Of a stretch of DNA of 64,000 nucleotides, positions 1 to 35,223 are shown in pieces. Source of the stretch: a virus (lineage: Duplodnaviria > Caudoviricetes); the IMG/VR virus record IMGVR_UViG_3300027486_000276, positions 25,790-89,789 of that record. The stretch is one strand, 5' to 3'. Position numbers and translations under genes: made by a program. The notes beneath the pieces are model-generated. The model was not told the DNA's origin. It searched no databases and saw nothing but the letters and a program-made list of their open reading frames with translations. Within the stretch, counting starts at the first letter, position 1, and the number at the start of each line of letters is the position of its first letter.

Positions 1-3000
1 TATGATCTTTTAAATGAATACCAAAAGAAAAATCGTCATATTCTTGAAGGTCTCTCTCTTAGAGATGCTCTAAAAATATCTTATCCTCAGTTAATGTATA
101 GAGAAAGAGGGACGAGTAAAGAGTCAAGTCTGAGCTTCATGAAAATATCTACTGAAAAAAGTCCATTTGAAAAGGAAACTCTTACTGGAAAAAAAATATT
201 TTCTTCAGTCTTAGATAAATTAACTGGCATATACGGATCTGATGTACCAGAATTCGTAAAAGATGTCGAAGCGCGTAAGATTTATATAAGTGAGTTATAT
301 GATACTTTCTCTAAAGGTCATGTTCCTAATTTTGCTTATAAATTAAAGAAAAGAAAGCAATATGAAAATGATAAAAAGAATAATTTTAGAACATTAACTG
401 ATCCTGAAACAGGAAGCCATTTGGATTACTATCCCGGAAATTTTGTCAATCCAAATACAGGTAGTTACGAAAAGGGTTTAAAAATCAGCTACATTGAATC
501 TAATCAAAAGGGTCAAGGTCAAGAGATGTTTGATCGATATTCAAAAACCGCCAAACGACTAGGAGTTAATTCTTACTCTTCTGTTATTGTAGCACAAGGC
601 GACAAATTAAAGAGAGTCATTCCTCAAAAACAATATGCTCTTTTAAGAGACAAAGATAAAGAAAAGCATTATGTTTTAGAAGAAACTTCAATAGAAGATA
701 TAGTTAAAATAGCTTATCCTCAATTGTCTTATAGACAAAAAGGGTTGTCTAAAAGCACAAATTTAAAATTTTCAAATCGTAACTATGTTGGGCGCATGGA
801 AGAAGAGGAGATTTTTGGTAAAAATATTTTATCTTTGGTTCAAGGCAAAATTAAAGATCTTTATAAAAATGATAAACAGTCTTTCATTGATGCCGTTATT
901 GACGGAGATCTCGCAATAGAGGCTTTAGTTGATACTTTTTCTAAAGGTCATATACCTAATTTTAATGCAGTCCAAGAAGCAATAGGAAGAGAGATGGCCG
1001 CTGGATACTCCTCTTCTCAAGTTAAAGTAGGCCAAAGCAGCAAACTAAAGACAAGCTTCAATCCAATGGGATTAGGAGTTTATAACTCCACAGAAGGTTC
1101 TCTTAATGGTGGAATTGGATTAGCAGAAAAAGCTGGAATAGACCCTAAGACAAAAGGAATGTCTTCAAAAGGACATATCCCTAATTTTGCTGACTTTGGA
1201 GGCGCAGATGCTTTTATATTGATTGCCGCTTTTGGAACTCTTAGTACTGCTTTAAAAGAAGTTTCAGGAAATTTCCAGAATCTAAAAACAACTTCAGATA
1301 ATTTAAAAAAATCATATGAATCTGCTGCTGCTAGTTTTGCAAGCGAAATGGGTAAGGCTAAACAATCACTTAATAGAACTTTATCATCTATTGAAAGCGA
1401 AGTAAAGAGTACTTTTACTAATATAGATCCAAAGACTTTAAAACAAAAAGGTTCTTCTGTTGCTCCTTTAGTTATGGGGCCTCGCGTTAGAGATGCTCTT
1501 GGAACATATACTAGTTCTCCTCAAGCCGCATCTTCAGAACAAGTAGCAAGATTGGAAGAGTTAAGAAATCAAACCGTTGAGGCTAGAAAACAAGAAGCTA
1601 AAAGAATTAGAGAAGCTAGGGCGGGATTAAGACAAATGCAGGGACAGATAGCCGAAACAGAAACTCCTTTCTTTTCAAGAGGCAGTTTTTCATCAGGAGG
1701 AAAAGCAGATAGATACGTTAGAGGAATGGGCACTCAAATTGGTTTAATCGGCAGTGTTATTTCAAATGTCGCTGGACAATTCATCTCTCCAGAAAACAAA
1801 ACAGCAAAAGCTGCAATGGCCGGTGTAGGAGAAATTAGTTCTTTTGCTGGTTTAGGAGCGCAATTTGGTGTTCCCGGTATGGTGCTAGGAGGAATTGCGG
1901 GACTTGGATCTGCTCTTTTAAAACTTAAAGATGCTAAAGCTGAAGAAGCTATCGATAAAATCAATAAATCTTTAGGAGAGACAAAAGAAAAATCTTCTGA
2001 ATTTTCTGGTGCCGCTCAAAATTACTCTACTTCTTTAGAAGGTTTACAAAACGCTTTAAATGATCCTAAGACGAAACCTGAAGCACTATTAAAGTTTCAA
2101 AATAATCTAACAGAAGCTTTAAATAGTATTCCTGAAGAGTTCAGAAGTAAAGTATTAGCCGCAGGTTCAGACATAACTAAAGTTAGTGAAGCTATTGGCA
2201 ATATAAATAAAGAAATGGCTAATACTCAAAAGAATTTGGAGCGTCAATTAGCTATTACAGAGTTTATTGAAAAGCAATCTTCTATTTTTGGCAGAGCCAG
2301 TTTAAAACCAAAAGATCAAGAGGTATTTAATAGACTATTTACTTCTTCTATTAAATCAGAAGAATTAGTTAAAAAATTTACTGGTAAAAATGCTAAAGAA
2401 GATTTTGGCAATTTTATTGATTCTTTAAAATCCGAAGCGATTTATGATAAAGATATTATCGGGCCTTATAATTCTCGTTTAGGGACTGAGACGCTTGTAA
2501 ATAAGGAAAGCGCAGAAAATATAAAAGCGCAGTTAAGGCAAAAAACAATTATCCCAGAAGAAATAATTAATCAGCTTGATAAAGCTTTCGCTGAACTTGA
2601 TGGTAAAGCATTAGGTTCTTTATTAGACTCTATCAAAAAAGCGGGTATAAGCGTTTTTGATTTTACTGAGAAAACAAAAATTCTTGGAGAAATAGCAGCA
2701 GAAAATGCAAAAAGAATCAAAGAAAATGAAGAATCTCTTAAAGCTTTAAATAATCAGTATAATAATATTAATCTTCAAATTTCTAATCAAATTGATATAG
2801 AAAAAAATCGCGCTCAAACCATTAGAGAAATAAATAAAATTCAAGCAGAAGGCGTGGTTTCAATCCAAAGAGCTAGAGTTAAAGGTCTTTTAGAATCAGC
2901 TACTCCATTTATTAGTGAGTCTTCAAAATCGGACATCCAAAATCAATTAGATCTAAATGAGATAACTTCTAGACAAAATTCTAAAATTCAAGAAGCTTCT

Positions 3001-6000
3001 AATAAACTTTTAGATTCTTTTTCAAATACAATAATTAAAAAATCAGAAGAAGCTAGATCAAAAGTTGTTCCTGCTATTGAAGGAGCCAAATCTGAAAACG
3101 CTATTCAACAAGAAAGATTTGTTTTCCAAAATCAAATTCAAAAACTAACTCCTTTAATTACTCAATCATTAAAAGAAATAACTTCTGGCGGAAACATAGG
3201 AGATATTCAAGCAAATTTAATTAAGAGTATAACAGGATTTTCTAAATTCAAGCCTGAAGAAAGAGATGTCCTTATACAGAGTCTTGAAGTGTCTTTTGCA
3301 GAATTTAAAAATACTCTTGCTGAAATAAAGGCTCAAGGTGATGTAGATATTCAGATTCAAGAAGCTCAAAGAGAATATCAAAAACAATCACTAGCCTTAA
3401 ATCAAAGACTTTCTTTTGCTGGTGGCGCACAAGCTTTAAGTTCAACTGGTAAAACAGGGGTTTCTGATCTTTTTGATAATATTTCTGAGTTAGTTTCTGA
3501 ATTAAGACAAACAAATACTATTGGAAATGCTGCTCAAAAAGGATCTAGTGCTTTTAAATTGCTTGATGTGTTAACAAATCAATTGCAGTTAAATAGAAAT
3601 ATTAATGCTCCAAATCTACCAAATAATTTTATTGGACCAAATATAAGTGGAGAGATGTTTAATAAACAAGTCTCATCTGATTTAACCCCTTTAGCAGCTA
3701 CAGCAATTGCTGGCAGAGTACAACAAATAAGAGATAGTTTAGATTTAGCTCGTAAAGTTACTGAAATACAAATAGGAAAAACAGCTCAAGGAACTGCTTT
3801 AGGTACTGCTTTCGATCAAGCAAAAGAAGGAGCAGTAAGAACTGCTTTAGATCAAATTGCTTCTCAGTTTAAGTTAGAGAATATGGGTAATTATCTTGAT
3901 GTATTACAACAAGAAGCTAGATTTTTAAATCAATTAACCCAAGATCAAAATTCTATTTTAGAAAGCACATTACCAAAAAGTATAAATGACAATTTTAATA
4001 CTGTTATTACCCGAGAAGTAGGTACAAAATTAACTACATTAACTACATCATTACAAAATGTTATTAATAAATTAGCTACCGATACAAAGAGAACAAATCT
4101 TTTAACTGAAAGATCTAATCTTTTGCCAGTTGCAAGCGTAGGTACTAGAAAAGCTATTTTTGATAGAATAGCTCAATCACAAGATTTAACAGATCTTCCT
4201 AAAGGAGTAAAATTTATAGATGATAAAGAAAGAATATCCTCTTTAAAAACAGAAATAAAAGATTTAGAAAGCTATTTAGAAAGTTTGAAGACAGTTGGAC
4301 AAGCGCAGATACAGCCAATTACTAAAGAATTGCAGAGATATCAACCACAAACAGATATGGATGAAATTTTATCTGGCTTGCAAAGATATCAAACAGAAGA
4401 ACAGGCAATGCAATCTACTATTCAAAGCGCGAAAATTTCTTCTGAAGCAGAAGCTAAATTAACAGAAGCTAAATCTACTCTACAAAAACTTAGTAAATAT
4501 GAAGGAAGTGATCCTAAAAAATTAGAATCACTTTTGGAAAGTTTAAAAAGTGAACTAATTAGATTGAACGAACCTACAAAACAAGATTATTTAAATACTA
4601 CTTATGAAGGACTTGCAAAACAAATTTTTAGAGATTTTAACCAGCAGATGTCTATTGAAGACATAAAATCTTTAAAAGAAAACGCTCGTAAAGAAAGAAA
4701 TTTAGCGACCGAAAAGCCTTTGATGGATGTAGATGCTAAAGTAGGTACTGGCTCAGGACAAGGTTCAAAAACTTCGACAGATGGTGGTGTAAAACGAGAT
4801 ATTCCTAGCCAATTAAGATTATTAAGAGAAAATTCAGATAGAATTACAAGTTTGCTTGCATTTAGATTACAAAATGACAAAGAACTTATTGACCTTAATG
4901 AAAAAGTAAATGCACTTTTAAAAGGTGATGCAGTTGACACAGCCAAAAGAGCAGAATTAATTAAGCTTCAAACTGAATTAAGAGCAAAAACTTTAGAACA
5001 AGAAGGTAAAGTCGCAGAAGAGTTATATAATTTATATTATAAAGAGTCATATGGAGAAACTTTCTTTAAGGATGAAAGAGCAGCTTTTGCTAACGCTAAA
5101 ATCGAAAATGAAGCTCGTCAAGGAAGAGTAGATATTGGAGCCATAACAGAAAAGAATACTACTTACAATAGAGCCGATTTTGCTAGAGACACTGGTCAAT
5201 TGATCGACACTTTCCAAACTGATTTCAAATCAGGTATTGCTAGTGCATTTGGTGAAGCTATCAAAGGAACTAAAACTCTTAAGGATGCATTTAGAGATAT
5301 GTTCCAAGGCATCTTAAATAGAATGCTTGATAAGTCTTTAGAGATGGGAGTTGATGCTTTATTTGCTTTTGGTAAAGCTGCAACTGGCAGAAAAGATGGT
5401 GGATTAATCAGAGGTTATAATTCTGGAGGTATGGTTGTTGGTGGCTCTGGAATGAAAGATGATGTACCCGCTATGATGAGTGGCGGCGAATACGTTATCA
5501 AGAAGTCTTCTGTTAAAAAATACGGTTCTGATTATTTAAGAGCTTTAAATGGAGGTATTGTTCCTAAATATGCAACTGGAGGATTCTCTATAGGCCCATT
5601 GCAGAATGAATTCTTATACAATGATCCTGATCGTCCAACTTCTGGAGAGTTTGCTATTGATTCTAGACTATCAGCCGCAGCTTTAACTGACGAGAATAAT
5701 CCTCAAAATAGATTAAGACAAGATCGTTATGAAAAGCTTGATCAATACTTACAAGACAGATCTCAATACGAGAAAGACAAACAGCAAGCTATTAAAAATT
5801 ACAAAAATCAAGTAAATAGCACTTTCTATTCAGGTTTAACTGCTGCTGCTGTTCAATTAGGTGCTGCTGGCCTTACGGTTGGAGCAGCTAATATGAGAAC
5901 TAATGCAGCAACATCTGCTGCAAGAGGTCTAGAACCCGGAGGCAACTTAACTCAAGCTCAATTAAACGCTCAATATGCAAGAAATCTTAGGTCAAATGGT

Positions 6001-6549
6001 GGTTATATAGCTAGATTTGCTGGCGGTGGATCAACAGGTAAAGATAATATTCCTGCCTTGTTAATGGGCGGCGAATATGTCATGAACAAGAAAGCCGTAG
6101 ATATGTACGGCAGAGACTTCATGAATCAATTAAATACTGGTACATTGCCTAAGTATGCCAGTGGCGGAATGGTTGGTACAAGCTATACAGCAGGTCAAAA
6201 TGTACCTGAATCTAGCGTGACCGAACTAGTCGCTGCTCTTAATACATTGAATGAAAACCTTTCCAAGGGCAATGACATCACCCAAGCTGAGTCAGGTAAA
6301 ATTTCTGCTGCTGGAGCAAATCAAGAATCTGGAATGTCTGTAGTTAATAACATTTCAATTAATGTTGCTCAAAGCGGCGAAGTCACTTCTGAAGCTAATG
6401 CTACCACTCAAAATGGCGGCTCCAATACCAACAAAGATCAAAACAGCATTCAAAACAATGCTAAACTTGCTGAACTACTCAGAAGCAAAGTCGTTGAAGT
6501 ATTGGTCGAGCAGAAGAGACCCGGAGGATTACTTTACGCCAGCAGATAA
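1..6549 (+). CDS. Giant tail tape-measure protein (5' partial), with N-terminal GNAT-like cassettes
   Basis: Frame is open from base 1 (YDLLNEYQKK...) through the listed ATG at 94, so the gene starts upstream of the window. Long Ala/Gln/Glu/Lys helical body, Gly/Ala hydrophobic stretch (GLGAQFGVPGMVLGGIAGLGSALL), duplicated C-terminal 'GG..G.KD.VPA..GGEYV..K..V..YG' motifs typical of TMPs; adjacent to tail-tip genes. Confidence 0.88.
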   Translation, partial: YDLLNEYQKKNRHILEGLSLRDALKISYPQLMYRERGTSKESSLSFMKISTEKSPFEKETLTGKKIFSSVLDKLTGIYGSDVPEFVKDVEARKIYISELYDTFSKGHVPNFAYKLKKRKQYENDKKNNFRTLTDPETGSHLDYYPGNFVNPNTGSYEKGLKISYIESNQKGQGQEMFDRYSKTAKRLGVNSYSSVIVAQGDKLKRVIPQKQYALLRDKDKEKHYVLEETSIEDIVKIAYPQLSYRQKGLSKSTNLKFSNRNYVGRMEEEEIFGKNILSLVQGKIKDLYKNDKQSFIDAVIDGDLAIEALVDTFSKGHIPNFNAVQEAIGREMAAGYSSSQVKVGQSSKLKTSFNPMGLGVYNSTEGSLNGGIGLAEKAGIDPKTKGMSSKGHIPNFADFGGADAFILIAAFGTLSTALKEVSGNFQNLKTTSDNLKKSYESAAASFASEMGKAKQSLNRTLSSIESEVKSTFTNIDPKTLKQKGSSVAPLVMGPRVRDALGTYTSSPQAASSEQVARLEELRNQTVEARKQEAKRIREARAGLRQMQGQIAETETPFFSRGSFSSGGKADRYVRGMGTQIGLIGSVISNVAGQFISPENKTAKAAMAGVGEISSFAGLGAQFGVPGMVLGGIAGLGSALLKLKDAKAEEAIDKINKSLGETKEKSSEFSGAAQNYSTSLEGLQNALNDPKTKPEALLKFQNNLTEALNSIPEEFRSKVLAAGSDITKVSEAIGNINKEMANTQKNLERQLAITEFIEKQSSIFGRASLKPKDQEVFNRLFTSSIKSEELVKKFTGKNAKEDFGNFIDSLKSEAIYDKDIIGPYNSRLGTETLVNKESAENIKAQLRQKTIIPEEIINQLDKAFAELDGKALGSLLDSIKKAGISVFDFTEKTKILGEIAAENAKRIKENEESLKALNNQYNNINLQISNQIDIEKNRAQTIREINKIQAEGVVSIQRARVKGLLESATPFISESSKSDIQNQLDLNEITSRQNSKIQEASNKLLDSFSNTIIKKSEEARSKVVPAIEGAKSENAIQQERFVFQNQIQKLTPLITQSLKEITSGGNIGDIQANLIKSITGFSKFKPEERDVLIQSLEVSFAEFKNTLAEIKAQGDVDIQIQEAQREYQKQSLALNQRLSFAGGAQALSSTGKTGVSDLFDNISELVSELRQTNTIGNAAQKGSSAFKLLDVLTNQLQLNRNINAPNLPNNFIGPNISGEMFNKQVSSDLTPLAATAIAGRVQQIRDSLDLARKVTEIQIGKTAQGTALGTAFDQAKEGAVRTALDQIASQFKLENMGNYLDVLQQEARFLNQLTQDQNSILESTLPKSINDNFNTVITREVGTKLTTLTTSLQNVINKLATDTKRTNLLTERSNLLPVASVGTRKAIFDRIAQSQDLTDLPKGVKFIDDKERISSLKTEIKDLESYLESLKTVGQAQIQPITKELQRYQPQTDMDEILSGLQRYQTEEQAMQSTIQSAKISSEAEAKLTEAKSTLQKLSKYEGSDPKKLESLLESLKSELIRLNEPTKQDYLNTTYEGLAKQIFRDFNQQMSIEDIKSLKENARKERNLATEKPLMDVDAKVGTGSGQGSKTSTDGGVKRDIPSQLRLLRENSDRITSLLAFRLQNDKELIDLNEKVNALLKGDAVDTAKRAELIKLQTELRAKTLEQEGKVAEELYNLYYKESYGETFFKDERAAFANAKIENEARQGRVDIGAITEKNTTYNRADFARDTGQLIDTFQTDFKSGIASAFGEAIKGTKTLKDAFRDMFQGILNRMLDKSLEMGVDALFAFGKAATGRKDGGLIRGYNSGGMVVGGSGMKDDVPAMMSGGEYVIKKSSVKKYGSDYLRALNGGIVPKYATGGFSIGPLQNEFLYNDPDRPTSGEFAIDSRLSAAALTDENNPQNRLRQDRYEKLDQYLQDRSQYEKDKQQAIKNYKNQVNSTFYSGLTAAAVQLGAAGLTVGAANMRTNAATSAARGLEPGGNLTQAQLNAQYARNLRSNGGYIARFAGGGSTGKDNIPALLMGGEYVMNKKAVDMYGRDFMNQLNTGTLPKYASGGMVGTSYTAGQNVPESSVTELVAALNTLNENLSKGNDITQAESGKISAAGANQESGMSVVNNISINVAQSGEVTSEANATTQNGGSNTNKDQNSIQNNAKLAELLRSKVVEVLVEQKRPGGLLYASR
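301..1188 (+). repeat. Three dispersed direct repeats encoding (DTF)SKGH(V/I)PNF
   Basis: 301-333 gatactttctctaaaggtcatgttcctaatttt vs 931-963 gatactttttctaaaggtcatatacctaatttt (30/33 identical); shorter third copy at 1162-1188. Confidence 0.9.
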
Positions 6550-7356
6550 TTCTTTAATCTTAGAATCTATAGTCAGTATAGCCTGATTATAGATTTGCTC
6601 TATATTATTATCTTTAGCTAGTGGCAGATTAAGAAAAGGGGTCTTCTCTACCTTTACAATGAATGCTTGATTCAAGTATTCTTTGCCTGTTGGTTTATTT
6701 AATGTAATGCGATATCGTTTTATATATACTTCACCTGTCAGGAAGTTGTCTTTAATCTTTTCGTTTAGAATTACAGTGATCGAAGCCTTCTCTCGCTTTA
6801 CGTCCAATACAGAAAAAAACTTGAGAGCCTTTTTATTGTCTTTGCCTAAAATCAAGCTTACTTTTGCGCCTTTACCAGATCCGCCTTCTAATTCTGCTTC
6901 ACTAAAATCTTGAGTGAATTTTCCATTGTTAATTAAATTAACTTCAGTAATGCCTCCATTACTATTAACAGCTTTAACTTGGAGAACAGCTTTTTGATTT
7001 TTGTCTATAGATGATTCAAAGTAAGAATTTTTACCAATGGTTACATATTCATTTACTTTGTATCCAGATCCAGATTCAGTAATATCATTAATTAATGCTG
7101 TATAGTAAGTAGTAAAATAGCAATCAATAGTATCTCCATCTAAGATCAGGTCTCTTACATTGTTGTCAAATTTAATTAATGAACTTGATTCTATAGTAAA
7201 AGACTTACTATAGTTAATAACATCAGTTCGAACAACGGAGAATTTATCTTCGTTGCCAATGATTTCTATTTGCTTGCTTGGTTCAATTGTAGACCAGTTT
7301 GCTAGATTATTAGAATATATGTATTGGTCGCCAAAAGAAAATAACACATCCGTCAT
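6529..7356 (-). CDS. Putative virion structural protein (G-x-G-Y beta-repeat)
   Basis: 275-aa ORF at end of the tail-tip operon; ITESGSGYKVNE ... NGGITEVNLINNG ... GGSGKGA motifs resemble repeats in large-phage baseplate/tail proteins. Confidence 0.55.
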   Translation of the reverse strand: MTDVLFSFGDQYIYSNNLANWSTIEPSKQIEIIGNEDKFSVVRTDVINYSKSFTIESSSLIKFDNNVRDLILDGDTIDCYFTTYYTALINDITESGSGYKVNEYVTIGKNSYFESSIDKNQKAVLQVKAVNSNGGITEVNLINNGKFTQDFSEAELEGGSGKGAKVSLILGKDNKKALKFFSVLDVKREKASITVILNEKIKDNFLTGEVYIKRYRITLNKPTGKEYLNQAFIVKVEKTPFLNLPLAKDNNIEQIYNQAILTIDSKIKELSAGVK

Positions 7357-8059: not shown

Positions 8060-11000
8060 TTAGTAAGTTATTACTATTGATAGTTCTAATGCTTGGATAT
8101 GGAAATTATATAAAGGAAATCTATTACCCGATCTTGCAGATAAATGTGCAAAAGCTAAGTTCTTAGCACTCTTAAATTTCCAGAAAGTTGGATTAGTTAT
8201 TGATGTATTATTACCATAAGAAACAGTATTGGTATAATAATTTGCATAAGGAATATTCTTTAACGTAACCTTAATTACATTATCATCTCCCGGTATTATT
8301 TGTGTTTTATCTACTTCACTAGCAACGAAATCTTCTCCAATGAAGCAATATACTTTTATAGCCTTTGTCTTATTAACACTTCCAATTGTAAAGAAAACAG
8401 ATAAAGATTCGCTTTCTAATACTGGAATTCCAGCATAAAAAGTAGAATTTGGTATGCCCAAACCAAATGAAGCTGCTGTTTGTTGGTTTATAGTATAAAC
8501 AGTAAAATTGTTTGGTTCTGCATTTATAAGCATCTGAACATTTTTAGTATTAACTCCAAGTTCAGAAAAGTTATTTTCAGGAGTGACATTTATTGTATTA
8601 AAAGATGAATTGAGCAATCCATCATTTAATAGAGTATCAAAAACAGTTTTTGCACTTGCTTCTGTATTTGAATTTTGAGCGTTTATAGGAACTGCATAAA
8701 AATTTGTATAATCAGGAATTAGACTCTTTATGTTTCCAGTAAACGTGCTGTTGATTAATCTCGTTATAGAGATGTCGAAAAATTCTTCGCTTCCTTCGCC
8801 AAAAGAGCTATTTGTTATTTTGCGATTAGCCCTAAAGGCATTAGATGCTACTGATTCTGATTCTACTCCTCTTAATAATTGAGGGGTAAGACTTGTGTTA
8901 GCAGCTAAAGCTCTTGTGAAAATCTTATTACCGTTTAGAACATAAGCTCTCTTGCCAGTGGGTATTTTTGGTGATAATGATGCATTTGGTATATTATCTC
9001 TATTTTGTAAAGAGAGTTTATAATAAGCCATAGTACCATCTGGATCTGAAGATAATACTCTGTCGTCTTTAGCTCCTATTGCTAGGTTTGCATTTGTAGT
9101 AGGCTTATAAATTACACTCCTTCTAGAAATTGCATAAGCTGGTGCAGCAAGCGTATTTACGCTAGTGTCAAATATATTTTCAGTTAGTATAGTCTTATTA
9201 ATTGTAAAATGAAGATATCTAGTATCAGCATCTTTCAATACAGACTCTAGAGAGAAAGATAATGGAATAGGTGATTCTTGTTTTATAATAATTGGATCAC
9301 TAATTTGTGCATAAACTTTTCCTACATTATTATCTTTATCAATAAAGCTAGAATAATAATCTAAGATATTTCTTGCTGTTGCTGCATTTGAATTAAATTG
9401 CCAAGCAAACATGAATGAATCTACAGCTATCAAATAAGCATTATATTGAGTAGAATCAAATCCTTTACCATTATCATCACTTAAATCATTGAAATTAAAT
9501 ATAGATTGGTTATTTGGTACTGTTATAAAGTGAGAGTCAGTAATTTCTTTTCCGCTAGTGTCATTGACAGAGAATGGACTTCCATCAGAATTATGATTTA
9601 TTGAATTTGTTCCAAATGCAAATTTGTTTTCGCTAGGCATTAATAGCAAATAAAAATAATTAACAAAAGAGCTTGCTGTGTCTTGCTGAATAGTGAATTT
9701 TAATCTATTTGATCCTTGGGTTGTAACAATAGAGTAATCTGCTCTTGTGTCGTTTAAAATTGCATCTAAAAATCCTTTTAAATTAGTATCTTGATTGTCA
9801 TAAGTCACTAGCAAAAATCCATTTACATTCTTAAAATCATTAGAAGTAGATCTCATTCCAGCTTCCGTGAATGTTCTCTTGTCTATCGCTAAAGAGAAGT
9901 CTCTATATTTAGCAAAAACATTTGAAGTCTTATAGTTGTATGTATTATCGTTAGTGTTATCTTCATCAAATGTTAAATAATCTTGCCAGTTTGAAACATT
10001 AAGATACTTGCTATAACTAGTGATAAAAGCTTCTTTTGTATTTACTTTTTCGGGTATTATTACTATTGAATAAGGATAATCAAGATTATTGAATTTGTTT
10101 GGATTTTTTATGAACTGCAAAGGTAGGTTAAATGATAAAGATTCTGAAGGTTTAATGGATTGAACTTGAGAAGGTATGGCTGGTTGAAAGTATTGTCCCT
10201 TTGTTAAATCAATTGGAGAAGTAAAAGCGTAAACTTTATTGTTTAAAGTGATTGATGAATTTGTGTTTACATCATCATAAGTAATTGGAACAACTGGAGA
10301 TACGAATAACTCGCTTGAATTTTGAGAGTTTAAAGCTTCAACATAAGTTAATGGAGAGCTATTGTTAATATTTGCGCCGTAGATTCTTATAGATCCTTTT
10401 ATATTACTCTTGTCCACAACAGTACTTATATAAGATTCATAAATATCAATTGGAACAAATTTAAAATCACTAGAGCTATTTGGATTAAATTCTGATCCAT
10501 AAAAGGCTTTATTAAATATCTTGAAGCCTATTGTAGTGTCTTTTATAGAAGAGTCGTAAAAGATTTCAATCAATACCTTGCTTTGATCTACTACTCCATT
10601 AGCCTCTGCAACGCCAAGAGTAAATAATGCTCTTGAAGGGGCGGAAGCTTCTGGTGCTGGTGGTTTTGCTGGCGTGATATTTAATCCAGATTCTATTTGA
10701 GCATACTTTAAGTGATACATCTGCGAGCCAATTACTGTATAATTACTTCCTTCTGTAGACTCTTGTATTCTAAATACTCTATAGAAATCATAATCACTAT
10801 CCGTAGATCCATTAAGATTTCCAGAGTTTTCTAAAGCCCAAGTTATTGACTTTGGAGACATTCCTGATGCTCCTGTAAAGTAAGACAAACCAGTTACATT
10901 TAACGTAGAAGCTATTACTGGGGCTAGTCCAGTAATTCTAATTGAATCATAATATTGACCAGTAATTAAGTTGCCGCTTCCTACTATGAATGAATTAGTA

Positions 11001-14000
11001 AGAGGCTTTCTATAATCATTATAATCAAGGTTACTGGTAACGATACTGTTTCCTGCTGCGTCTTTAAAACTAGGATCTAGATTATACTTGGGAGAAAGTA
11101 TGGTTAGCTTATAATTTTGATTTCCAGAAAAGTTAAAATCAAGTTTTCTATCTAGAGTTAGTATTCCAGTAGTTACATTTGTGTCTCCAGAGATGTTAAT
11201 ATTATTTAATCTTCCGCCTACTGTTTTATATTTTCTATTATAATCGTAGACTTTAATTACATCTCCGGGTTTTAAGTATACGCATTCTGGGCCAGCTTCA
11301 AAAGAAACTGTTTCTGTTTCATTGTATTCTGAAGCTAATAACCATCTGCCAAGTCTTTGAGCTTGGCCTCTGCTTGTGCATCCAAAGGCAGTTAATTCGG
11401 TTTCTTTAAAACCAAATTTTCTAACAGCCTCGATATTTTCTACATATTCTACTGCTGGTTTATAAAAATTATTCTTATCAATATATCTAATATAGACCAC
11501 AGAATTTCTGTCTTTTAATGATGTAGATTCGTAAGTAAAATTACCATCAGATACATTTGAATTAGTGAAAGAATAAATAGGGGTATCTTCTGGCATATCA
11601 TTTATGGCGTAAATGAATCCATTTGAATAATAGAACATTCCTCTAAATACAGAAGCCATATCAGACAATACTTTAAGAGCATCATCTTGCGTTTGTAAAT
11701 AAACGTTACATGTAAATCTTGGTTCTACTCCTCCAAATCCATCTGAGACAAGTTCATCGCAATATTTAGCTATTTGATAAAGAGACCATTTGTCTACGTC
11801 ATTTTCTGTAACATAGTTACCTACTCCATATCTCTTATTTGTTAAAAGATCATAGAAACACCAAGCTGGATTATCTGTCCATTCTTTTTCAGTTTTAAAT
11901 TCTCCATCCCAATAATCATTTGATGTAGAATAAGGCAATACTCCTGCTACGTCATAAACAGTAGTTTTTCTAGAAAGACCTTCTGAGAAAAGATTTCTCG
12001 CAAATGATTTAGCCAAAGAAAGCCTGTCGAAATCAATTTGATTTACTCTAATAGAATCAGCATAACCTTGTATTTTGCCACCGAAGCCAGCGGGTGATGT
12101 AAAGATTTCTATTTGATTATTATTAGTTATAAAATAAGAAGGAATGAAAGGACCAGTTTTTGTATTTACTGCGTCGTAAATTTGTCCAGCAGCAAGAGGG
12201 ATAAGCACTTTAACTTCACTCTGAGAAGAACTTAAGCTTACTGAAGTAGAAGATCCATCGAATGTTTTATGATATTCTAGTTTGTTATAAGCATTTAAGG
12301 CTGCTTGAGTAAGTGAAGCTACTTGCGCTCTTTGATTTATTTCATTTTGCCAATTAGCGTCTGTAGTAGGTCTGTATAAAGCTCCAACACAAAGAGTTTG
12401 ATAAGCATCATAATTTGAAATATTTATATTACATTGAATTTGCTTTTCTAGGTTAACTAGAACATCTATCTCTGCATTTAATATGTCTGGGAAGTATTCT
12501 TTAGTAAGCCTTCTTTCAATAGCGGGGGCATAAATTGGAGTTTTTCCTGCGACACCTGTAGTAACCTGACCTTGATTAAAATTACAGTATATATATTTAT
12601 AACAAGTTTCTGGTAAGTTGTTAATATCACTACTATAAGAAGTATCTTCTTTAAAACTTACTGCTTTTACTAAATAAAAATCTTTTAGTTCTTGTGCTAA
12701 CGCTCTTTCGTTTCCATCTGTTGTCGTCCTTCTAACCGTTATATAGTCATTAGTCCAAGTTTTATCTGATATATTTATGTTAGTTACTCTACTTGCGTTT
12801 GTGGTGTACGATATACTTGGTTTTACTACTTTTGGAAGTATATAGAAACTAATTCTTGTAAAATTCGCTTTAAGTTTAGTCGTAGAATATTTCGTTGACT
12901 CTAAGGCTTTTGTAATGGTATAATTTTTGCTTTCATTTGGAGAAATAACTGTAAGTATCAAGCTTACGTTTTCTCCAGATATCGTCATGGAAAGATTAAA
13001 CTGATTGCTTCTATGGATTAGAGTATAGTTTCCGTTTCCAATACTGCTTCCTAATTTAATAAAGAAGTCGCAATAAAAACTACAAAATCCTTGGTCTTTT
13101 AAAGAAAAATTATTCGGGCCATTTCCTTTCCAATATCTTTGTGGTATTAAATCCCATTCATAATAGTTGTTTTGAGCTAAATTTCCTCCTGTATAATTAT
13201 AAGCCTTTGTTCTTTGACCATTAGCGCATAAAGTTTTTAATGGCATTTTTATATAAGTGTCTGACTGCACGTTGAGAACGTTTGTACTATAAGAGCCTAC
13301 AATAGAACTAACGGTTGTTACGTTATTTCTGGTTACGTTCCATTTATTGTTAAGCCAGTTTCTTATTTTAATACCATCTGATTTTGATAGAGCTTTATTA
13401 TATACTAGTATTTCAAATACAGTACATTTGCTTGAAGTTGGTGTAGAATAATTAATAGCTAAACCTTTTGGAGCATCTACTCTATAATATGGTCTTACAA
13501 AGTAATTAGTATTTTGCCAAAATATATTTACATCTTTTAGATTGTTTACGCTTGCTCCTACTATATATGTATTTGTATCGTTAGAAGTATTCCAATAATT
13601 AGAACGATTATATGGATAAAAATTAGGATTCATGACTCCATATATTTGCGCTCCTATTATAAAAGTACTATTAAATTTAGCGTCAAATCCTAAAACAAAA
13701 GAATCTGCTGAAGTAGAAGAAGAAAGTATTCTATTTCTTTCTGTGTTAGTTGCGGTATCGTCCCATTTACAGACAGCAAATACAGTATAATTATTACTAG
13801 CATCAGCTAATGGAGTTGCTTCAACTTGATAAACAAATTTTGCTTTTTGAGTAGTTGTAAATGAAACACCATAGCTTCCATTTGGACTTTGTTCTGAATA
13901 TGATGACCCATATGTTGGCCTCTCAGCACTTCCATTTGGAGATGCATAAGTTCCGTTTCCTAAAACGCATTTTATAGTTGATCCAGCTACAGTATTGGGC

Positions 14001-15445
14001 CAATTAGTCACTGCTCCTGCTGAAGTAGTAGTTAAAGAAGGGTTGCTTGCATCAAATTGAGCAATTAATCCATCTGTAATTGGAGGATTAACATTGTCTG
14101 AATTTGTATATACATTGTTTTCTCCAACAAAGAAATCTGTTGTGATTACTTTATCAGTTTTAGCGAATGAATTAGTAGCTGTAATTGAAAGTGGAGTTGT
14201 ATTTCCATAGGTTTTTGTTATTGGATCATAATTAGCAGGAACCTTAACCTTTAATAATTTGACATCATAAGATCTTTCTGGAATCTTTGAGAAATACGCA
14301 GCGTTAAACTTAGAAGTTACAATAGCGGAATTTGTATATCTAAACGAAGAAGAATATATTTCAGTAATACTTTCTAAACTTATGAAAGAAGCTCTTGAAG
14401 AATAAGTGTCTTCTGGGGTGATCTTTAATACTGAAATATCCCAACCTAACCAATTTTCATTTTCATTCAATGAGAGAAAGTTGGAAGAGGTATCAAAAAT
14501 AATTTGTTTAGAATATCCTTGAGTAATTTTTCCTTTTGATTCTAGTTCAAATATTTGAGGGAAAGTGTCCACTGTGACAGCTAAGTCTTTAGAATCATCA
14601 ATTACTTTGGCTTTATCTGAAATTAGATCAAGTACTGCGGAGTTGCCATTGTAGCCTTCTTTGTAAATTGGCGAAATTCTTATTCTTATTTTAAAGTTGT
14701 GACGAATTACAGAACCCACACCAGCATCTAATGTTTGTCCATTCGTTAATTCAGTATCTCTACTTGTTGGATCTAATGTGAATGTAGCACTGCTTACGTT
14801 TGCGCTTGTTACTCCTTCTATTTTTAAACCTCTTTCTGATATTGCTTTTAAATCTTGATATTTTAAGCTGATATAAAGAGAAGAAACTCTAAAATTAAGA
14901 GAAATCTTTTTGCATTCTCTGTTTAAAATGCGATAAGTCCTCTGATAATCTAACACTTCGTCTTCGGTTGCGGCTAGTAGATTTGGTCCTCTGAGCCTCT
15001 CTCCTATTGAACGGATGTAAGAAACATTGTCGAACTCTCCTCCTGACGAACTTCCTTCTGGAGTTCCATTAGTTGTTTGGATGTTTATTTGTTGGAAATT
15101 ATATTTATCTTGGCTATCTAAAAGAGGGGTTTGATTCCATTGAACTGATCTTAAATATTTTGATTCTCCATCGCTGCCCACAACTGATGGGTATTCATTA
15201 TAAGTGACTTTTTTAAATCCTAGGTCTCCAACTTGCCCTGAAAAACTATATTGCCCCTCAAGAAGACCTCCAATTGGTCCTTCTGACAAAAGATCTTTTA
15301 CTTTGGCAAATTGATATACGTTATAAGTAAGTCCATCATATACAAATCCCTCGACATCTTCATATGCAGCAGTTGGCGTTGGAGCTACGCTTGCTCCACC
15401 TCCACCAAAACCTTTTATGTATTTAAAATCTTCAAGATTGTTCAT
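8060..15445 (-). CDS. Central tail fibre / host-specificity protein (lambda gpJ-like), 2461 aa
   Basis: DLLSEGPIGGL, KVKVPANYDP, WDGEFK..WTDNPAWCFYDLLTNKRYGVG, DKWSLYQIAKYCDELVSDGFGGVEPRFTCNVY, GCTSRGQAQRLGRWLL, LKPGDVIKVYD are canonical gpJ motifs. Confidence 0.93.
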   Translation of the reverse strand: MNNLEDFKYIKGFGGGGASVAPTPTAAYEDVEGFVYDGLTYNVYQFAKVKDLLSEGPIGGLLEGQYSFSGQVGDLGFKKVTYNEYPSVVGSDGESKYLRSVQWNQTPLLDSQDKYNFQQINIQTTNGTPEGSSSGGEFDNVSYIRSIGERLRGPNLLAATEDEVLDYQRTYRILNRECKKISLNFRVSSLYISLKYQDLKAISERGLKIEGVTSANVSSATFTLDPTSRDTELTNGQTLDAGVGSVIRHNFKIRIRISPIYKEGYNGNSAVLDLISDKAKVIDDSKDLAVTVDTFPQIFELESKGKITQGYSKQIIFDTSSNFLSLNENENWLGWDISVLKITPEDTYSSRASFISLESITEIYSSSFRYTNSAIVTSKFNAAYFSKIPERSYDVKLLKVKVPANYDPITKTYGNTTPLSITATNSFAKTDKVITTDFFVGENNVYTNSDNVNPPITDGLIAQFDASNPSLTTTSAGAVTNWPNTVAGSTIKCVLGNGTYASPNGSAERPTYGSSYSEQSPNGSYGVSFTTTQKAKFVYQVEATPLADASNNYTVFAVCKWDDTATNTERNRILSSSTSADSFVLGFDAKFNSTFIIGAQIYGVMNPNFYPYNRSNYWNTSNDTNTYIVGASVNNLKDVNIFWQNTNYFVRPYYRVDAPKGLAINYSTPTSSKCTVFEILVYNKALSKSDGIKIRNWLNNKWNVTRNNVTTVSSIVGSYSTNVLNVQSDTYIKMPLKTLCANGQRTKAYNYTGGNLAQNNYYEWDLIPQRYWKGNGPNNFSLKDQGFCSFYCDFFIKLGSSIGNGNYTLIHRSNQFNLSMTISGENVSLILTVISPNESKNYTITKALESTKYSTTKLKANFTRISFYILPKVVKPSISYTTNASRVTNINISDKTWTNDYITVRRTTTDGNERALAQELKDFYLVKAVSFKEDTSYSSDINNLPETCYKYIYCNFNQGQVTTGVAGKTPIYAPAIERRLTKEYFPDILNAEIDVLVNLEKQIQCNINISNYDAYQTLCVGALYRPTTDANWQNEINQRAQVASLTQAALNAYNKLEYHKTFDGSSTSVSLSSSQSEVKVLIPLAAGQIYDAVNTKTGPFIPSYFITNNNQIEIFTSPAGFGGKIQGYADSIRVNQIDFDRLSLAKSFARNLFSEGLSRKTTVYDVAGVLPYSTSNDYWDGEFKTEKEWTDNPAWCFYDLLTNKRYGVGNYVTENDVDKWSLYQIAKYCDELVSDGFGGVEPRFTCNVYLQTQDDALKVLSDMASVFRGMFYYSNGFIYAINDMPEDTPIYSFTNSNVSDGNFTYESTSLKDRNSVVYIRYIDKNNFYKPAVEYVENIEAVRKFGFKETELTAFGCTSRGQAQRLGRWLLASEYNETETVSFEAGPECVYLKPGDVIKVYDYNRKYKTVGGRLNNINISGDTNVTTGILTLDRKLDFNFSGNQNYKLTILSPKYNLDPSFKDAAGNSIVTSNLDYNDYRKPLTNSFIVGSGNLITGQYYDSIRITGLAPVIASTLNVTGLSYFTGASGMSPKSITWALENSGNLNGSTDSDYDFYRVFRIQESTEGSNYTVIGSQMYHLKYAQIESGLNITPAKPPAPEASAPSRALFTLGVAEANGVVDQSKVLIEIFYDSSIKDTTIGFKIFNKAFYGSEFNPNSSSDFKFVPIDIYESYISTVVDKSNIKGSIRIYGANINNSSPLTYVEALNSQNSSELFVSPVVPITYDDVNTNSSITLNNKVYAFTSPIDLTKGQYFQPAIPSQVQSIKPSESLSFNLPLQFIKNPNKFNNLDYPYSIVIIPEKVNTKEAFITSYSKYLNVSNWQDYLTFDEDNTNDNTYNYKTSNVFAKYRDFSLAIDKRTFTEAGMRSTSNDFKNVNGFLLVTYDNQDTNLKGFLDAILNDTRADYSIVTTQGSNRLKFTIQQDTASSFVNYFYLLLMPSENKFAFGTNSINHNSDGSPFSVNDTSGKEITDSHFITVPNNQSIFNFNDLSDDNGKGFDSTQYNAYLIAVDSFMFAWQFNSNAATARNILDYYSSFIDKDNNVGKVYAQISDPIIIKQESPIPLSFSLESVLKDADTRYLHFTINKTILTENIFDTSVNTLAAPAYAISRRSVIYKPTTNANLAIGAKDDRVLSSDPDGTMAYYKLSLQNRDNIPNASLSPKIPTGKRAYVLNGNKIFTRALAANTSLTPQLLRGVESESVASNAFRANRKITNSSFGEGSEEFFDISITRLINSTFTGNIKSLIPDYTNFYAVPINAQNSNTEASAKTVFDTLLNDGLLNSSFNTINVTPENNFSELGVNTKNVQMLINAEPNNFTVYTINQQTAASFGLGIPNSTFYAGIPVLESESLSVFFTIGSVNKTKAIKVYCFIGEDFVASEVDKTQIIPGDDNVIKVTLKNIPYANYYTNTVSYGNNTSITNPTFWKFKSAKNLAFAHLSARSGNRFPLYNFHIQALELSIVITY

Positions 15446-15446
15446 T

Positions 15447-16172
15447 TTATATATTATTTATTTGGTCTTTTACGTCTGCTGCTGTTGATTTATTATCTAG
15501 CTCAATATTATTGACAGATACCTCAACTGTCTGAGATCCTATTTTCATTCTACCATAACCAATTGGAACAGGACCACCTTCTCCAAGAATGTTAGAAGGT
15601 CCGTCAAATAAGTAGTTTGGCTTGCTGCCATCTTCTTGGATTTTTCTAAAATCATCAAATTTTGGAGGCGACATCATTAACAATGTAATACCTGTTACAG
15701 CTAATCCTATACCTGCTCCAATTAATGCTCCTGATAAAGTCGCACTTGCTGTAGCAGATAGCCCAAGCCCAAACCCAACTGGCGCAAAAACGCCTGTGGC
15801 TATTAGCAAAACGCCAAGAACTAAAGCTAAGACTCCTTTGGTCGTATTGTTTCCGCCTCCTCCACCAGCACCCCTAATAATTGGAACGATATCTAAGGTT
15901 TCTAGCTTTTCGTTAATCATTACTAATTCAGAATTGAGAATAGAATCTGGTTTTTCTAGAGAAATGCTTTCTGGATTCATTATTTCTCTCTTATTAACAA
16001 GCACTTTATACTCTACGCTTTTTTCTGCTGCTCCTATTAGATATTTTAGGAGTTTGCCTTTAGATAAGACTTGAATAGCTCGCAATGCTTCCTTTATGGA
16101 ATTTACTTTTAAATTCCAATTTTCTCTTCCCACTTGCTCTGCTATTTCTCCGTGTAAGGTAATGCTAGTCAT
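15447..16172 (-). CDS. Tail assembly protein (lambda gpI-like)
   Basis: ITLHGEIA...SIKEALRAI ubiquitin-like N-terminus, IVPIIRGAGGGG, hydrophobic Gly/Ala stretch, YLFDGPSNILGEGGPVPIGYGRMKIGSQ. Confidence 0.9.
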   Translation of the reverse strand: MTSITLHGEIAEQVGRENWNLKVNSIKEALRAIQVLSKGKLLKYLIGAAEKSVEYKVLVNKREIMNPESISLEKPDSILNSELVMINEKLETLDIVPIIRGAGGGGGNNTTKGVLALVLGVLLIATGVFAPVGFGLGLSATASATLSGALIGAGIGLAVTGITLLMMSPPKFDDFRKIQEDGSKPNYLFDGPSNILGEGGPVPIGYGRMKIGSQTVEVSVNNIELDNKSTAADVKDQINNI

Positions 16173-16911
16173 AAAGGTGATGTCTCATTATATAAATTAC
16201 CCATTTTTTGTATTGGTTAGAAAGCTTTTCGGTAAGAGAACGCTTATTTCCGGGGTGATGTAAAATAGTATCTTCTCCAAGATAAACAGCGCAATGGATA
16301 GGAAAATTATAACCTCTTGTTCTCATTATTAGAACATCGTTCTTTTTAAAATTAGAAACTTCTCTAAAACCGTTGTACTCAAAATATCTCTTTAAATAAT
16401 TATCTTTTTCCTTTAATGCGGCTTCTTCGTCTGTGAATCTTTTAGTTACTATATCATTATACTCTTGCTCAGATACAGATTCTTTTAGAACCTCTAACTC
16501 TGGGCATAAATGAATATTTAAATCATGACAGAAATAATCTTTTACTAACCAAAGGCAATCAGCAAAACCTAAAAGAAAAGGTCTGTCTGTATATTGAATT
16601 TTATATCCATTTGGATAATAGATGTGAAAAACTCCACTCTGTTTATTATAAACTATACATGGTAAGCCTAGCCTTTCAGAAACAATTTCGTCTGCATTTG
16701 AAATAGCATCAAAATCTATATGAGAATGATAATAAGCCGCAAAATTAGATTGGCTATAAATATCCATCGCAAATTCAGTAGCTGAATTAATGAGGTTATC
16801 TTTCTTTTGTACCTCTAGTCCATTATCTGTATGTACTAAAACGCCGCATACTTCATTATTAGAAGTATTAGCGTGTTCTATGATTTTATTTTTAAGCTCT
16901 TCTGTTAACAT
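16165..16911 (-). CDS. Tail assembly protein K-like (JAB/MPN + NlpC/P60), paralogue 2
   Basis: EVCGVL...YHSH...SNAD JAB motif; FLLGFADCLWLVKDY...HCAVYLGEDTILHH NlpC/P60 Cys-His. Confidence 0.88.
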   Translation of the reverse strand: MLTEELKNKIIEHANTSNNEVCGVLVHTDNGLEVQKKDNLINSATEFAMDIYSQSNFAAYYHSHIDFDAISNADEIVSERLGLPCIVYNKQSGVFHIYYPNGYKIQYTDRPFLLGFADCLWLVKDYFCHDLNIHLCPELEVLKESVSEQEYNDIVTKRFTDEEAALKEKDNYLKRYFEYNGFREVSNFKKNDVLIMRTRGYNFPIHCAVYLGEDTILHHPGNKRSLTEKLSNQYKKWVIYIMRHHLYD

Positions 16912-17663
16912 AATTGTTTACTCCTTGCAAAACAATAGATCCTTCTCTTCTCTGCGTCTGTTAGTTTTTCTATTATTGACTTTTTATTTCTTGGTTGGTG
17001 CAAAATATAACCTTGTTCAAGGTAAATGCCAAAATGAGAAGGATAGTTATCTAAATACTTGAACACAATAATATCATGTTTTTTAGCGTTTTCTATACCT
17101 TCTATTTTGATAAAGTTTTCTTTTTCAAAGAATTTGTCAAAGTTCTCTGAATCACAAAACTCTGTTAGTTTATTTTTAACAAAATCTGCGTAGTTTTTAT
17201 CCCAATCTACCCCTCTTTCGTAATGGAAAATCTTAATGCCAAATTCTTCATTATAATAATTCTCTACTATTGATAAACAGTCAGATTGATTAATAACAAA
17301 GTTTTTGTTTATGTATTTATTATAGTAATTTTCAGGAGAATACTCTTCAAAAGAATCTCTTTTTAGTATATAAACGATATTCTTTAGTTTTAAATTAGAA
17401 CTAATTTGCTTGTCTAGTTCAGAAAAAGAATTGTCTTGAATACAGTGAGAATGATAAATGCCAGCCACTTTGCCATTCATTGAGGCTTTGAGGTAGTCCA
17501 TTTGGCATACAACGAATTCATTTTCTTTATCTTGAGCAGCATTCCTGCATGGAAATGCTTCTAGGATATTTTTTCTATTTAGAACTAAAAGACCGCAGCA
17601 TTCTTCAGGATTTTCCTTTAGCGCGTGTTCTTTTATTTTTGCTTTTATTTCATCCGAAACCAT
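16905..17663 (-). CDS. Tail assembly protein K-like (JAB/MPN + NlpC/P60), paralogue 1
   Basis: PEECCGLL...YHSHCIQDNSFSELD (HxH-x7-SxxD); DCLSIVENYY...HFGIYLEQGYILHQP. Confidence 0.88.
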   Translation of the reverse strand: MVSDEIKAKIKEHALKENPEECCGLLVLNRKNILEAFPCRNAAQDKENEFVVCQMDYLKASMNGKVAGIYHSHCIQDNSFSELDKQISSNLKLKNIVYILKRDSFEEYSPENYYNKYINKNFVINQSDCLSIVENYYNEEFGIKIFHYERGVDWDKNYADFVKNKLTEFCDSENFDKFFEKENFIKIEGIENAKKHDIIVFKYLDNYPSHFGIYLEQGYILHQPRNKKSIIEKLTDAEKRRIYCFARSKQLC

Positions 17664-28326: not shown

Positions 28327-28355
28327 ATACTATGCGGCAACTGGAGACTTATCAA
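28327..28355 (-). promoter_or_regulatory. Sigma70-like promoter for the Rad52-like gene
   Basis: - strand TTGATA (28355-28350) -17 nt- TAGTAT (28332-28327), 7 nt upstream of GTG start. Confidence 0.65.
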
Positions 28356-29502: not shown

Positions 29503-29503
29503 A

Positions 29504-32004: not shown

Positions 32005-32033
32005 ATTTTGCCTGAAAAAATGCGATTTATCAA
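32005..32033 (-). promoter_or_regulatory. Weak sigma70-like promoter for the 31411-31995 gene
   Basis: TTGATA (32033-32028) -17 nt- CAAAAT (32010-32005). Confidence 0.4.
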
Positions 32034-34588: not shown

Positions 34589-35223
34589 ATTGCGATCTGG
34601 AATTTGAGCTTGTTCCATACTTTGATGTTTAAATGTAAGTCGTTAAGTGCGTCGTGTAAGGTTTCGTAATCGTGGTCAATATCGTATTCTTTGCCAAGTG
34701 CAGTTAAATTGGTTTTTACTCCTTTGCGTCTTTCATTCAGTATTCTGTACTGATATTCAATCAAGCTAATATCTTTAGAATAAGGGATCTCATATTTGAT
34801 GCCTTTGGCTAGGCAGTTTGTGTCGATAACCTTATTAACCAAATGCTTCCATTCTTTTCCGTGCATCTCGTAATAGTCTTTTATCAAGTAAATATCAAAA
34901 TTAAGAACATTGTGACCTACGATATAATCGCACTTTTCTAGCCACTGATCAATTGTTTTAATTGCTTCGCTTGAGTGTACTGCAATTTTATTATATTTGT
35001 ACTGATCAAAGCGAGTTATTACTGCCGCTTCTTTGCTAACATTAATTGGTTTATCCCATTTGATATGTATGTCAGAGGTTTCTAAAATCTCATTACCCTT
35101 AACTCTAATCATACCACACTGCCAAGGGCGATTATTAATGAAACTTAGACAAAGATTCTCGGTTTCTAAGTCTATAAAAGTGTAAACTTTATCCTTATCG
35201 TAACGAAGTAGATTTTCCATCAT
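34585..35223 (-). CDS. dnaQ: DEDDh 3'-5' exonuclease (Pol III epsilon-like)
   Basis: FIDLETE (ExoI), VGHNVLNFD (ExoII), LHDALND (ExoIII); between PHP and dnaE genes. Confidence 0.88.
   Translation of the reverse strand: MMENLLRYDKDKVYTFIDLETENLCLSFINNRPWQCGMIRVKGNEILETSDIHIKWDKPINVSKEAAVITRFDQYKYNKIAVHSSEAIKTIDQWLEKCDYIVGHNVLNFDIYLIKDYYEMHGKEWKHLVNKVIDTNCLAKGIKYEIPYSKDISLIEYQYRILNERRKGVKTNLTALGKEYDIDHDYETLHDALNDLHLNIKVWNKLKFQIAI

Follow-up and report, generated by a model that had tools for sequence, protein, structure and literature searches.

The 64,000-nucleotide (nt) stretch of IMG/VR virus record IMGVR_UViG_3300027486_000276 analyzed here, referred to throughout as the window, begins inside a long gene on its plus strand. 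The frame-1 open reading frame (ORF) of this gene spans nt 1-6549, has no start codon inside the window, and is open at the 5' edge. The ORF is part of a 3570-amino acid (aa) tail tape measure protein (TMP) of the TP901 type, and the portion nearest the window edge encodes the end of a serial array of protein cassettes that are each closed by a short linker motif. The phage to which it belongs is an uncultured siphovirus of freshwater and river metagenomes, and nt 1-1400 of the window are present in at least 20 riverine or freshwater metagenome runs.

The tape measure gene and its cassette array

An exact 50-nt search returned three IMG/VR contigs that match the window, one of which (112.8 kb) holds the complete gene, whose product there is 3800 aa long. 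A later protein search yielded P0024, a 3570-aa protein that contains the exact 2182-aa window translation from residue 1389 on. A sequence-only reading of the window that preceded this analysis had taken the cassette stretch for the N-terminus of the TMP. Given that the window translation lies at residues 1389-3570 of P0024, the stretch is not N-terminal; it corresponds to residues 1389-1785 and thus to the middle of the protein.

The identification as a TMP draws on both ends of the protein and on its gene neighborhood. PF10145 (PhageMin_Tail) matches the N-terminal 635 aa of the near-identical full-length protein of contig L001 with an E-value of 7e-31, in a part of the gene that lies upstream of the window, and the same annotation is precomputed for P0024 and for 50 of its 52 relatives. 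Residues 28-401 align by tblastn to annotated TMPs of Bacillus, Lactococcus, Listeria and other phages at 25-28% identity, and the N-terminal core is homologous to YomI and Bacillus phage TMPs at the same level of identity (25-28%). The C-terminal part of the L001 homolog matches the PHROG tape measure families phrog_3547 (E 1.5e-15) and phrog_934. Homologs of the lambda tail-tip proteins gpM, gpL, gpK and gpJ adjoin the TMP gene on the opposite strand. When the stretch was compared by megablast and tblastn with 50,697 deposited phage genomes, no match to the cassette region was found; only the N-terminal TMP core finds matches among these records (tblastn). The last 21 nt of the TMP gene (6529-6549) overlap the 3' end of an opposite-strand ORF at 6529-7356, so that the TMP gene converges on the tail-tip operon and does not lie directly upstream of gpM, unlike its counterpart in lambda.

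The layout of P0024 is a core of 633 aa, cassettes A (341 aa) and B (116 aa), three GNAT-like cassettes of 210, 199 and 210 aa, cassette E (75 aa), and a C-terminal part of 1786 aa. Each of the six cassettes ends in G[FYH][IV]PNF. The window opens inside the second GNAT-like copy, holds all of the third, and continues with cassette E. The features of the TMP gene within the window, all on the plus strand, are as follows (HMM, hidden Markov model; AF2, AlphaFold2; pLDDT, predicted local distance difference test).

1-333, plus strand: C-terminal 111 aa of GNAT-like cassette copy 2 (P0024 residues 1389-1499), cut by the window edge; cassette HMM positions 98-208
316-333, plus strand: linker 1, GHVPNF, in frame 1
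334-963, plus strand: complete GNAT-like cassette copy 3, 210 aa, assigned from an AF2 model, structural matches and the conserved motif A
946-963, plus strand: linker 2, GHIPNF, cassette residues 205-210, model pLDDT below 50
964-1188, plus strand: terminal cassette E, 75 aa, the conserved last cassette of the array
1171-1188, plus strand: linker 3, GHIPNF, coinciding with a sharp mosaic breakpoint
1186-1254 (aa 396-418), plus strand: hydrophobic, transmembrane-like segment next to the array (Kyte-Doolittle scan)
1189-6549, plus strand: C-terminal 1786-aa TMP part, with PHROG TMP matches in the homologous part of the L001 protein
1864-1926 (aa 622-642), plus strand: second hydrophobic segment, glycine-zipper-like (Kyte-Doolittle scan)
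5458-5526 and 6043-6111, plus strand: two copies of the motif D-[DN]-[VI]-P-A-x-x-x-G-G-E-Y-V-x-x-K near the TMP C-terminus, in a region that matches PHROG families of other TMPs

Much of what the sequence-only reading had described at the nucleotide level was borne out. Three G-H-[VI]-P-N-F linkers are present, and the repeat cores at 301-333 and 931-963 are identical at 30 of 33 nt and lie 630 nt apart; over a longer repeat that encloses linkers 1 and 2, the identity is 34 of 39 nt (87%) at the same spacing. The peptide LKISYIESNQKGQGQEMFDRYSKTAKRLG, which had been likened to the acetyl-CoA-binding motif A of GNATs, is encoded at nt 478-564. The claim of two paralogous blocks stood in one respect and had to be revised in another: nt 1-333 and 634-963 are truly paralogous, but each such block is the C-terminal half of one 210-aa GNAT-like domain. 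In the full protein this 199-210-aa unit occurs three times, and the copies are 41-52% identical to each other. The six linker residues at the cassette end are disordered in the AF2 model (pLDDT below 50), and the linker looks like an exposed tail. The array is thus a string of independently folding domains with an exposed six-residue motif after each of them, usually followed by alanine.

The part of the protein that follows the array differs from it in how its length behaves. In the close clade of relatives, the C-terminal part is nearly constant at 1617-1793 aa, whereas the array ranges from about 390 to 1380 aa. Because the length of the C-terminal part is steady while that of the array varies, the array is probably not the length-measuring part, and we read the 1786-aa C-terminal part as the length-determining tail ruler. 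The first of its hydrophobic segments starts 8 residues past the last linker.

Exchange of cassettes at the linkers

The clearest case of cassette exchange involves a 226-aa cassette, D, that lies between GNAT-like copies 1 and 2 in contigs L001, L002 and L010. It is absent from L003, L009 and the window's own protein, in which the corresponding junction reads ...SKGYVPNF|SYAV.... In L001, cassette D is flanked by an identical 17-nt direct repeat, GGATATGTCCCTAATTT, the codon choice of which is used by no other linker of the L001 gene. The allele that lacks cassette D is the exact product of recombination between the two 17-nt copies, and the insertion or deletion is in frame.

Pairwise nucleotide comparisons show changes of identity at the same kind of position. 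Between L010 and L009, identity is 94% in the core, 80% in cassette A, and 99.7% in both cassette B and the first GNAT-like copy; past the site where L009 has no cassette D, it is 97.5% and 99.2% in the segments that follow and 97.8% in cassette E, and then drops to 75% downstream, with each change falling at a linker. Likewise, nt 1-1150 of the window share 97-100% identity with L009 and L010, and this value falls to about 50% over the first 100 nt past the third linker. Among P0023, P0024 and P0025, cassettes B, GNAT 1-3 and E are 95-100% identical, while the cores are 82-93% and the C-terminal parts 60-69% identical, indicating that the array has moved recently between diverged backbones. 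The number of GNAT-like copies in close relatives ranges from one to three, and some close relatives replace these copies with a cassette of 281, 318 or 576 aa.

It had been proposed from the sequence that related phages would differ in content between conserved linkers and that the linkers are recombination points. The first proposal agrees with what we observe, since insertions and deletions, identity steps and replacements all have their junctions at linkers, and the second is supported by the 17-nt repeat around cassette D and by the identity steps. In these alignments, cassettes are gained, lost, duplicated and replaced, with the linker codons serving as short direct repeats for recombination. 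We regard a cassette array with exchange at the level of the linkers as very likely.

The array is not confined to this phage. When a profile of the GNAT-like cassette was searched against 1.84 billion representative proteins, there were only 20 matches, all of them to giant TMP-like proteins except for three short fragments. A search with cassette E gave 52 further proteins of 2.1-5.6 kaa on contigs of up to 194 kb, and the sole annotation that these carry is PF10145 or "TP901 family phage tail tape measure protein". A metagenome scan added only 5 loci, and a scan of viral contigs with P0003 gave no match. The resulting set comprises 68 related proteins longer than 1800 aa (1.9-5.6 kaa), all of metagenomic origin, and the counts that follow refer to it. 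The strict motif G[FYH][IVL]PN[FY] occurs 355 times, compared with 0.05 times in shuffled sequences, at 2-21 linkers per protein; the residue after the linker is alanine in 58% of cases and alanine, asparagine or serine in 81%. The 338 internal cassettes fall into 130 sequence clusters, 92 of which are singletons. Cassette E is present in 58 of the 68 proteins and ends the array in nearly all of them, and the GNAT-like cassette is found in 24. Within the window and eight related loci, the PNF linker motif is confined to the TMP ORF, and linker peptide strings were not found in this context in the literature searched. Searches of every cassette with Pfam, PHROGs and NCBIfam gave nothing meaningful, and the only cassette match that Pfam produced among 15 full-length members was one DUF7178, with no enzyme family profile among the results. 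The extreme members of the family are P0042 (5251 aa, 20 cassettes) and P0063 (5603 aa), so TMPs of more than 5000 aa exist, and P0062 comes from a TARA marine sample, which extends the family to marine samples.

Cassette folds and their proposed role

To obtain a structural model of the repeated cassette, we ran AF2 on the translation of window nt 334-963 with an alignment of 10 cassette copies from five contigs. The model has a mean pLDDT of 84.4 and a predicted template modeling score of 0.78, and the order of its elements is four strands, a long helix (residues 61-75), a strand, a helical insert, and then strand-strand-helix-helix-strand. It contains the mixed beta-sheet and the beta4-alpha3-beta5 core of the GNAT fold. 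A Foldseek search of the PDB returned mostly GNATs with probabilities of 0.93-1.0 and no match below an E-value of 1e-3; the GNATs include the TacT, AtaT, GmvT and KacT toxins, aminoglycoside and polyamine acetyltransferases, and GCN5, and the list is interspersed with low-probability ribosomal and polymerase chains. VIA-align also matches the cassette model to GNATs, and a search of BFVD returns viral acetyltransferases. A GNAT-like module had been predicted, with a helical repeat as the outcome that would speak against it, and in this test, which was set beforehand, the AF2 model and all three structural searches gave the GNAT fold.

The putative cofactor-binding motif, S-x3-G-x-G, is encoded at nt 499-519 in the beta4-loop-alpha3 region, helix alpha3 corresponding to approximately nt 514-558, and sits in the model where the strand of residues 45-55 meets the helix of residues 61-75. 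Over 26 unique copies, G60 is conserved in 100%, S56 in 96% and G62 in 92%. Residues S28, Y32, Q88, Q130, R134 and K140 are retained together with motif A across copies that are only 30-50% identical. A search of PDB sequences with the cassette profile found no GNAT, giving only a chance match to S16 at an E-value of 1.1. On the basis of the model and its structural neighbors, we consider it highly probable that the repeated 199-210-aa cassette has a GNAT fold, while the odds that it is an active acetyltransferase appear even.

Two further cassettes carry candidate enzyme motifs, and their positions in L001 are as follows.

L001:8354-9031, minus strand: cassette D, 226 aa
L001:10010-11032, minus strand: cassette A, the first cassette (314-343 aa), located upstream of the window in its own genome and present in 25 proteins

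Cassette D occurs in 7 of the 68 giant TMPs (8 copies), leaving 7 homologs in 6 proteins once the duplicate P0023 is dropped. All 7 sequences contain L-x-R-[GS] and S-[TA]-S-x4-[VIS]-A-x-x-[FH]-A, and 5 of the 7 contain E-x-E, the second glutamate of which is invariant. The ordered motifs of an R-S-E ADP-ribosyltransferase (ART), namely aromatic-R-G, S-T-S with A-x-x-F-A, and E-x-E, are found in cassette D; we take their order and form to be those of the R-S-E ARTs C3, ExoS and ModA. Cassette D has no Pfam, PHROG or NCBIfam match, word-based homolog searches at near and longer lengths found none, and tblastn against phages gave chance matches only. An alignment of cassette D to full-length P0003 and P0008 was discarded, since the query was scattered over the long proteins, and a phmmer search of the PDB with P0054 gave no match. 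From its motifs, cassette D is somewhat more probably ART-like than not. For cassette A, the elements FEA...GGDFD...GDYKL are kept in 22 unique homologs, a set that resembles that of PD-(D/E)xK nucleases and that we offer as a lead only. Neither cassette D nor cassette A gave an informative result in the ESM Atlas. A homology between cassette E and the short first cassettes was also considered; hhalign aligned the linker ends only, and no homology is claimed.

These observations suggest a model in which an exchangeable array within a giant TMP supplies effectors at infection. The TMP would fill the tail tube and leave it ahead of the DNA, and its hydrophobic, glycine-zipper segments would insert into the host membrane. 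In a type VI secretion system DNase effector, translocation depends on a TMP-type glycine zipper (PMC10240207). Because the TMP would be expelled first and its hydrophobic segments would enter the membrane, cassettes traveling with it as enzymes or effectors would arrive at the cell where and when the DNA enters. There, the GNAT-like copies might acetylate a host or defense target, and other cassettes of relatives might have ADP-ribosyltransferase and PD-(D/E)xK nuclease activity. Given the small residue after PNF and its predicted disorder, the linker could be a processing site; it could also be a site for docking to a chaperone or to the tube, or a recombination handle and nothing else. Most likely, it has an additional function in the protein itself, as a linear motif for processing or docking; that it is specifically a cleavage site seems doubtful. 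We assign the model as a whole, including the effector role, a probability of roughly 0.6. For the injected effector role of the cassettes by itself, the arguments for and against are about balanced. A broader version, in which TMPs are programmable multi-effector injection strings that deliver up to approximately 20 enzymes at DNA entry (acetyltransferases, ADP-ribosyltransferases, nucleases and many unknown folds) and in which the PNF motif is both recombination handle and processing or docking signal, is tentative, and the odds are somewhat against it.

Several points weigh against this model. The lumen of a siphovirus tail tube is about 4 nm wide, too narrow for three TMP chains that each contribute a folded 210-aa domain; because folded domains exceed the lumen, the cassettes must be either unfolded or outside the tube. 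The presence of the array in the virion, its ejection and its cleavage are all putative. Pfam searches of the 15 full-length proteins found no protease typical of polyvalent proteins. With respect to the GNAT-like cassette, the first position of motif A is lysine, asparagine or tyrosine, not the usual glutamine or arginine of Q/R-x-x-G-x-G/A; no Pfam or NCBIfam acetyltransferase profile matches it even at E-values up to 1; and catalysis by itself gives little reason for one enzyme to be present in three tandem copies. The ART assignment, which is motif-based, faces the absence of cassette D from the genome of this phage, a single PDB match by phmmer (the STS segment to ExoT, E 0.88), an hhalign comparison with T4 ModA and ModB in which only L-x-R-G-V aligned (probability 1.4%), and a single-sequence AF2 model with a pLDDT of 34.6 that is unusable.

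Some of the same observations fit a different account, in which the cassettes are non-catalytic structural modules that provide extra ruler length, a plug or an assembly scaffold, the GNAT fold is a degenerate scaffold, and the linker docks a chaperone or the lumen. That no cassette of the 15 full-length proteins has an enzyme family profile is consistent with such a role, as are the three copies of one domain and the confinement of the linker to the TMP, where it recurs at regular domain ends like a repeated docking site. In addition, the length of the TM4 TMP, embedded motifs included, reportedly sets tail length. Even so, we consider a purely structural role unlikely. Motif A and the polar residues are kept at 30-50% identity in a pattern that suggests a ligand site, and two other cassettes bear enzyme-like motif sets. 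A 3.5-fold variation in array length among close relatives with a steady C-terminal part is unexpected for a ruler, and the diversity of the cassettes (130 clusters, 92 singletons) is typical of conflict effectors rather than of structural parts.

The array could also act in the producing cell if it were cleaved at G[FYH][IV]PNF during assembly and released late enzymes in the manner of a polyprotein. Lambda gpH and other TMPs are proteolytically processed, the tail-tip operon includes two NlpC/P60-type peptidase genes, and the linker resembles a cleavage site in having an invariant P-N-F that is followed by alanine, asparagine or serine in 81% of cases and is disordered in the model. Such cleavage is purely putative, however, a cell near lysis would be a poor time for host-modifying enzymes, and an array that is simply discarded would have no reason to lie between the TMP core and the membrane segments, which together make this account quite improbable. 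A final alternative holds that the repeats are a trace of old internal duplications, that the linkers have no recombination role, and that the apparent swaps are artifacts of alignment or assembly. All of the data come from metagenome assemblies, in which repeats can be mis-assembled. Yet independent assemblies from several samples and collections yield the same architectures, the cassette D insertion or deletion is in frame and flanked by an identical 17-nt repeat, and identity steps of 20-50 points occur at linkers in several pairs, so we find this alternative scarcely credible. An assembly artifact as such was rejected, since these forms recur across independent assemblies and at least 20 runs.

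TMPs are generally treated as rulers and channel formers that carry at most a cell-wall hydrolase. In the present family, the middle third of the TMP takes the form of a recombining array in which cytoplasm-type domains sit behind a fixed linker motif. If the effector model is correct, the concept of injected polyvalent proteins would have to be widened to the lumen of the siphovirus tail, and the giant TMPs would constitute a previously unrecognized route for, and reservoir of, phage counter-defense and host-takeover functions. The PNF linker would then be a handle for mining hundreds of uncharacterized candidate effector domains from metagenomes, and the TMP a natural modular chassis for protein delivery into bacteria. 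The model also raises the structural question of how globular domains are stored in or beside a 4-nm tube.

Neighboring genes and known systems

Beyond the TMP gene, the window contains the following genes.

8060-15445, minus strand: giant structural gene encoding a 2461-aa gpJ-like protein (Phage-tail_3)
16165-17663, minus strand: two adjacent gpK-like genes, one with Prok-JAB and NlpC/P60 domains and the other with NlpC/P60 and a weak DUF4329 match
22114-27621, plus strand: second giant structural gene, encoding an 1835-aa protein with Laminin_G_3 domains and located downstream of a tube-like gene with an IPT/TIG domain at its end
28330-31411, minus strand: glycosyltransferase genes, GT9-like and GT1-like (the latter with a weak Aspzincin_M35 match), that separate the structural module from the replication module
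32030-35972, minus strand: replicative polymerase split over three genes, namely a Pol III alpha core (32030-34618), an RNase T-type exonuclease (34585-35223) and a PHP domain (35220-35972)
35982-36908: PD-(D/E)XK nuclease gene next to the split polymerase

Lambda-type tail tips usually carry a single gpK-like gene.

Among known systems, T4 Alt and the P1 Dar proteins are parallels for injected proteins. Like the TMPs described here, polyvalent proteins are very large multidomain phage proteins that join several unrelated effector-type domains, and they are proposed to accompany the DNA into the host and to be split into units (PMC5512222). The polyvalent-protein paper reports both ART and GNAT domains (PMC5512222, quoted in PMC7824862) and is silent on tape measure proteins (the word "tape" has 0 occurrences in it; PMC5512222). 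Polyvalent proteins are carried by a MuF or portal-associated protein or a DarB-like head protein, usually with a zincin-like metallopeptidase (MPTase), whereas the carrier here is the TMP; Pfam found no MuF, MPTase or other listed polyvalent domain in the 15 full-length proteins. A further difference is the fixed six-residue motif that closes every cassette here. The giant TMP would work like a polyvalent protein but is not a member of that group by architecture.

TMPs with enzymatic domains, such as SPbeta YomI with its transglycosylase and peptidase, TM4 with its Rpf-like motif and T5 Pb2, are also siphovirus rulers with catalytic modules. These proteins carry one or two cell-wall hydrolases, whereas the present family has 2-21 cassettes in 130 clusters, none of them a recognized peptidoglycan hydrolase, and, unlike them, contains cytoplasm-type folds (GNAT) and a dedicated linker motif. 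In actinobacterial contractile injection systems, Sle1-type effectors likewise have a TMP-derived platform in a tail-like tube and an exchangeable domain (PMC11126660, PMC13277306), and the functional domain has been swapped experimentally (PMC13277306). They differ in being small cargo proteins of the injection system with a single C-terminal domain, no array and no PNF linker, and they are not phage rulers.

Polymorphic toxins such as Rhs (DPxGL) and CdiA (VENN) resemble the array in that a short motif borders a constant carrier and variable domains and acts as a handle for swaps at the DNA level. The Rhs boundary motif is also an autoproteolysis site. These toxins have one variable C-terminal toxin domain and a neighboring immunity gene, in contrast to the serial cassettes in a virion protein described here, for which no immunity genes were seen. 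The best structural matches of the GNAT-like cassette are conflict GNATs (the tRNA-acetylating toxins TacT, AtaT and KacT, AcrVA5, and phage Rac), with which it shares the strand-loop-helix motif for the coenzyme A pyrophosphate. The cassette differs from them in having no detectable sequence homology, in that alpha1-alpha2 are not in their usual place, in having approximately 100 extra residues after beta5, and in occurring threefold inside a structural protein. Among the closest concepts compared here, none includes a phage TMP that bears cassettes in series with a linker dedicated to them.

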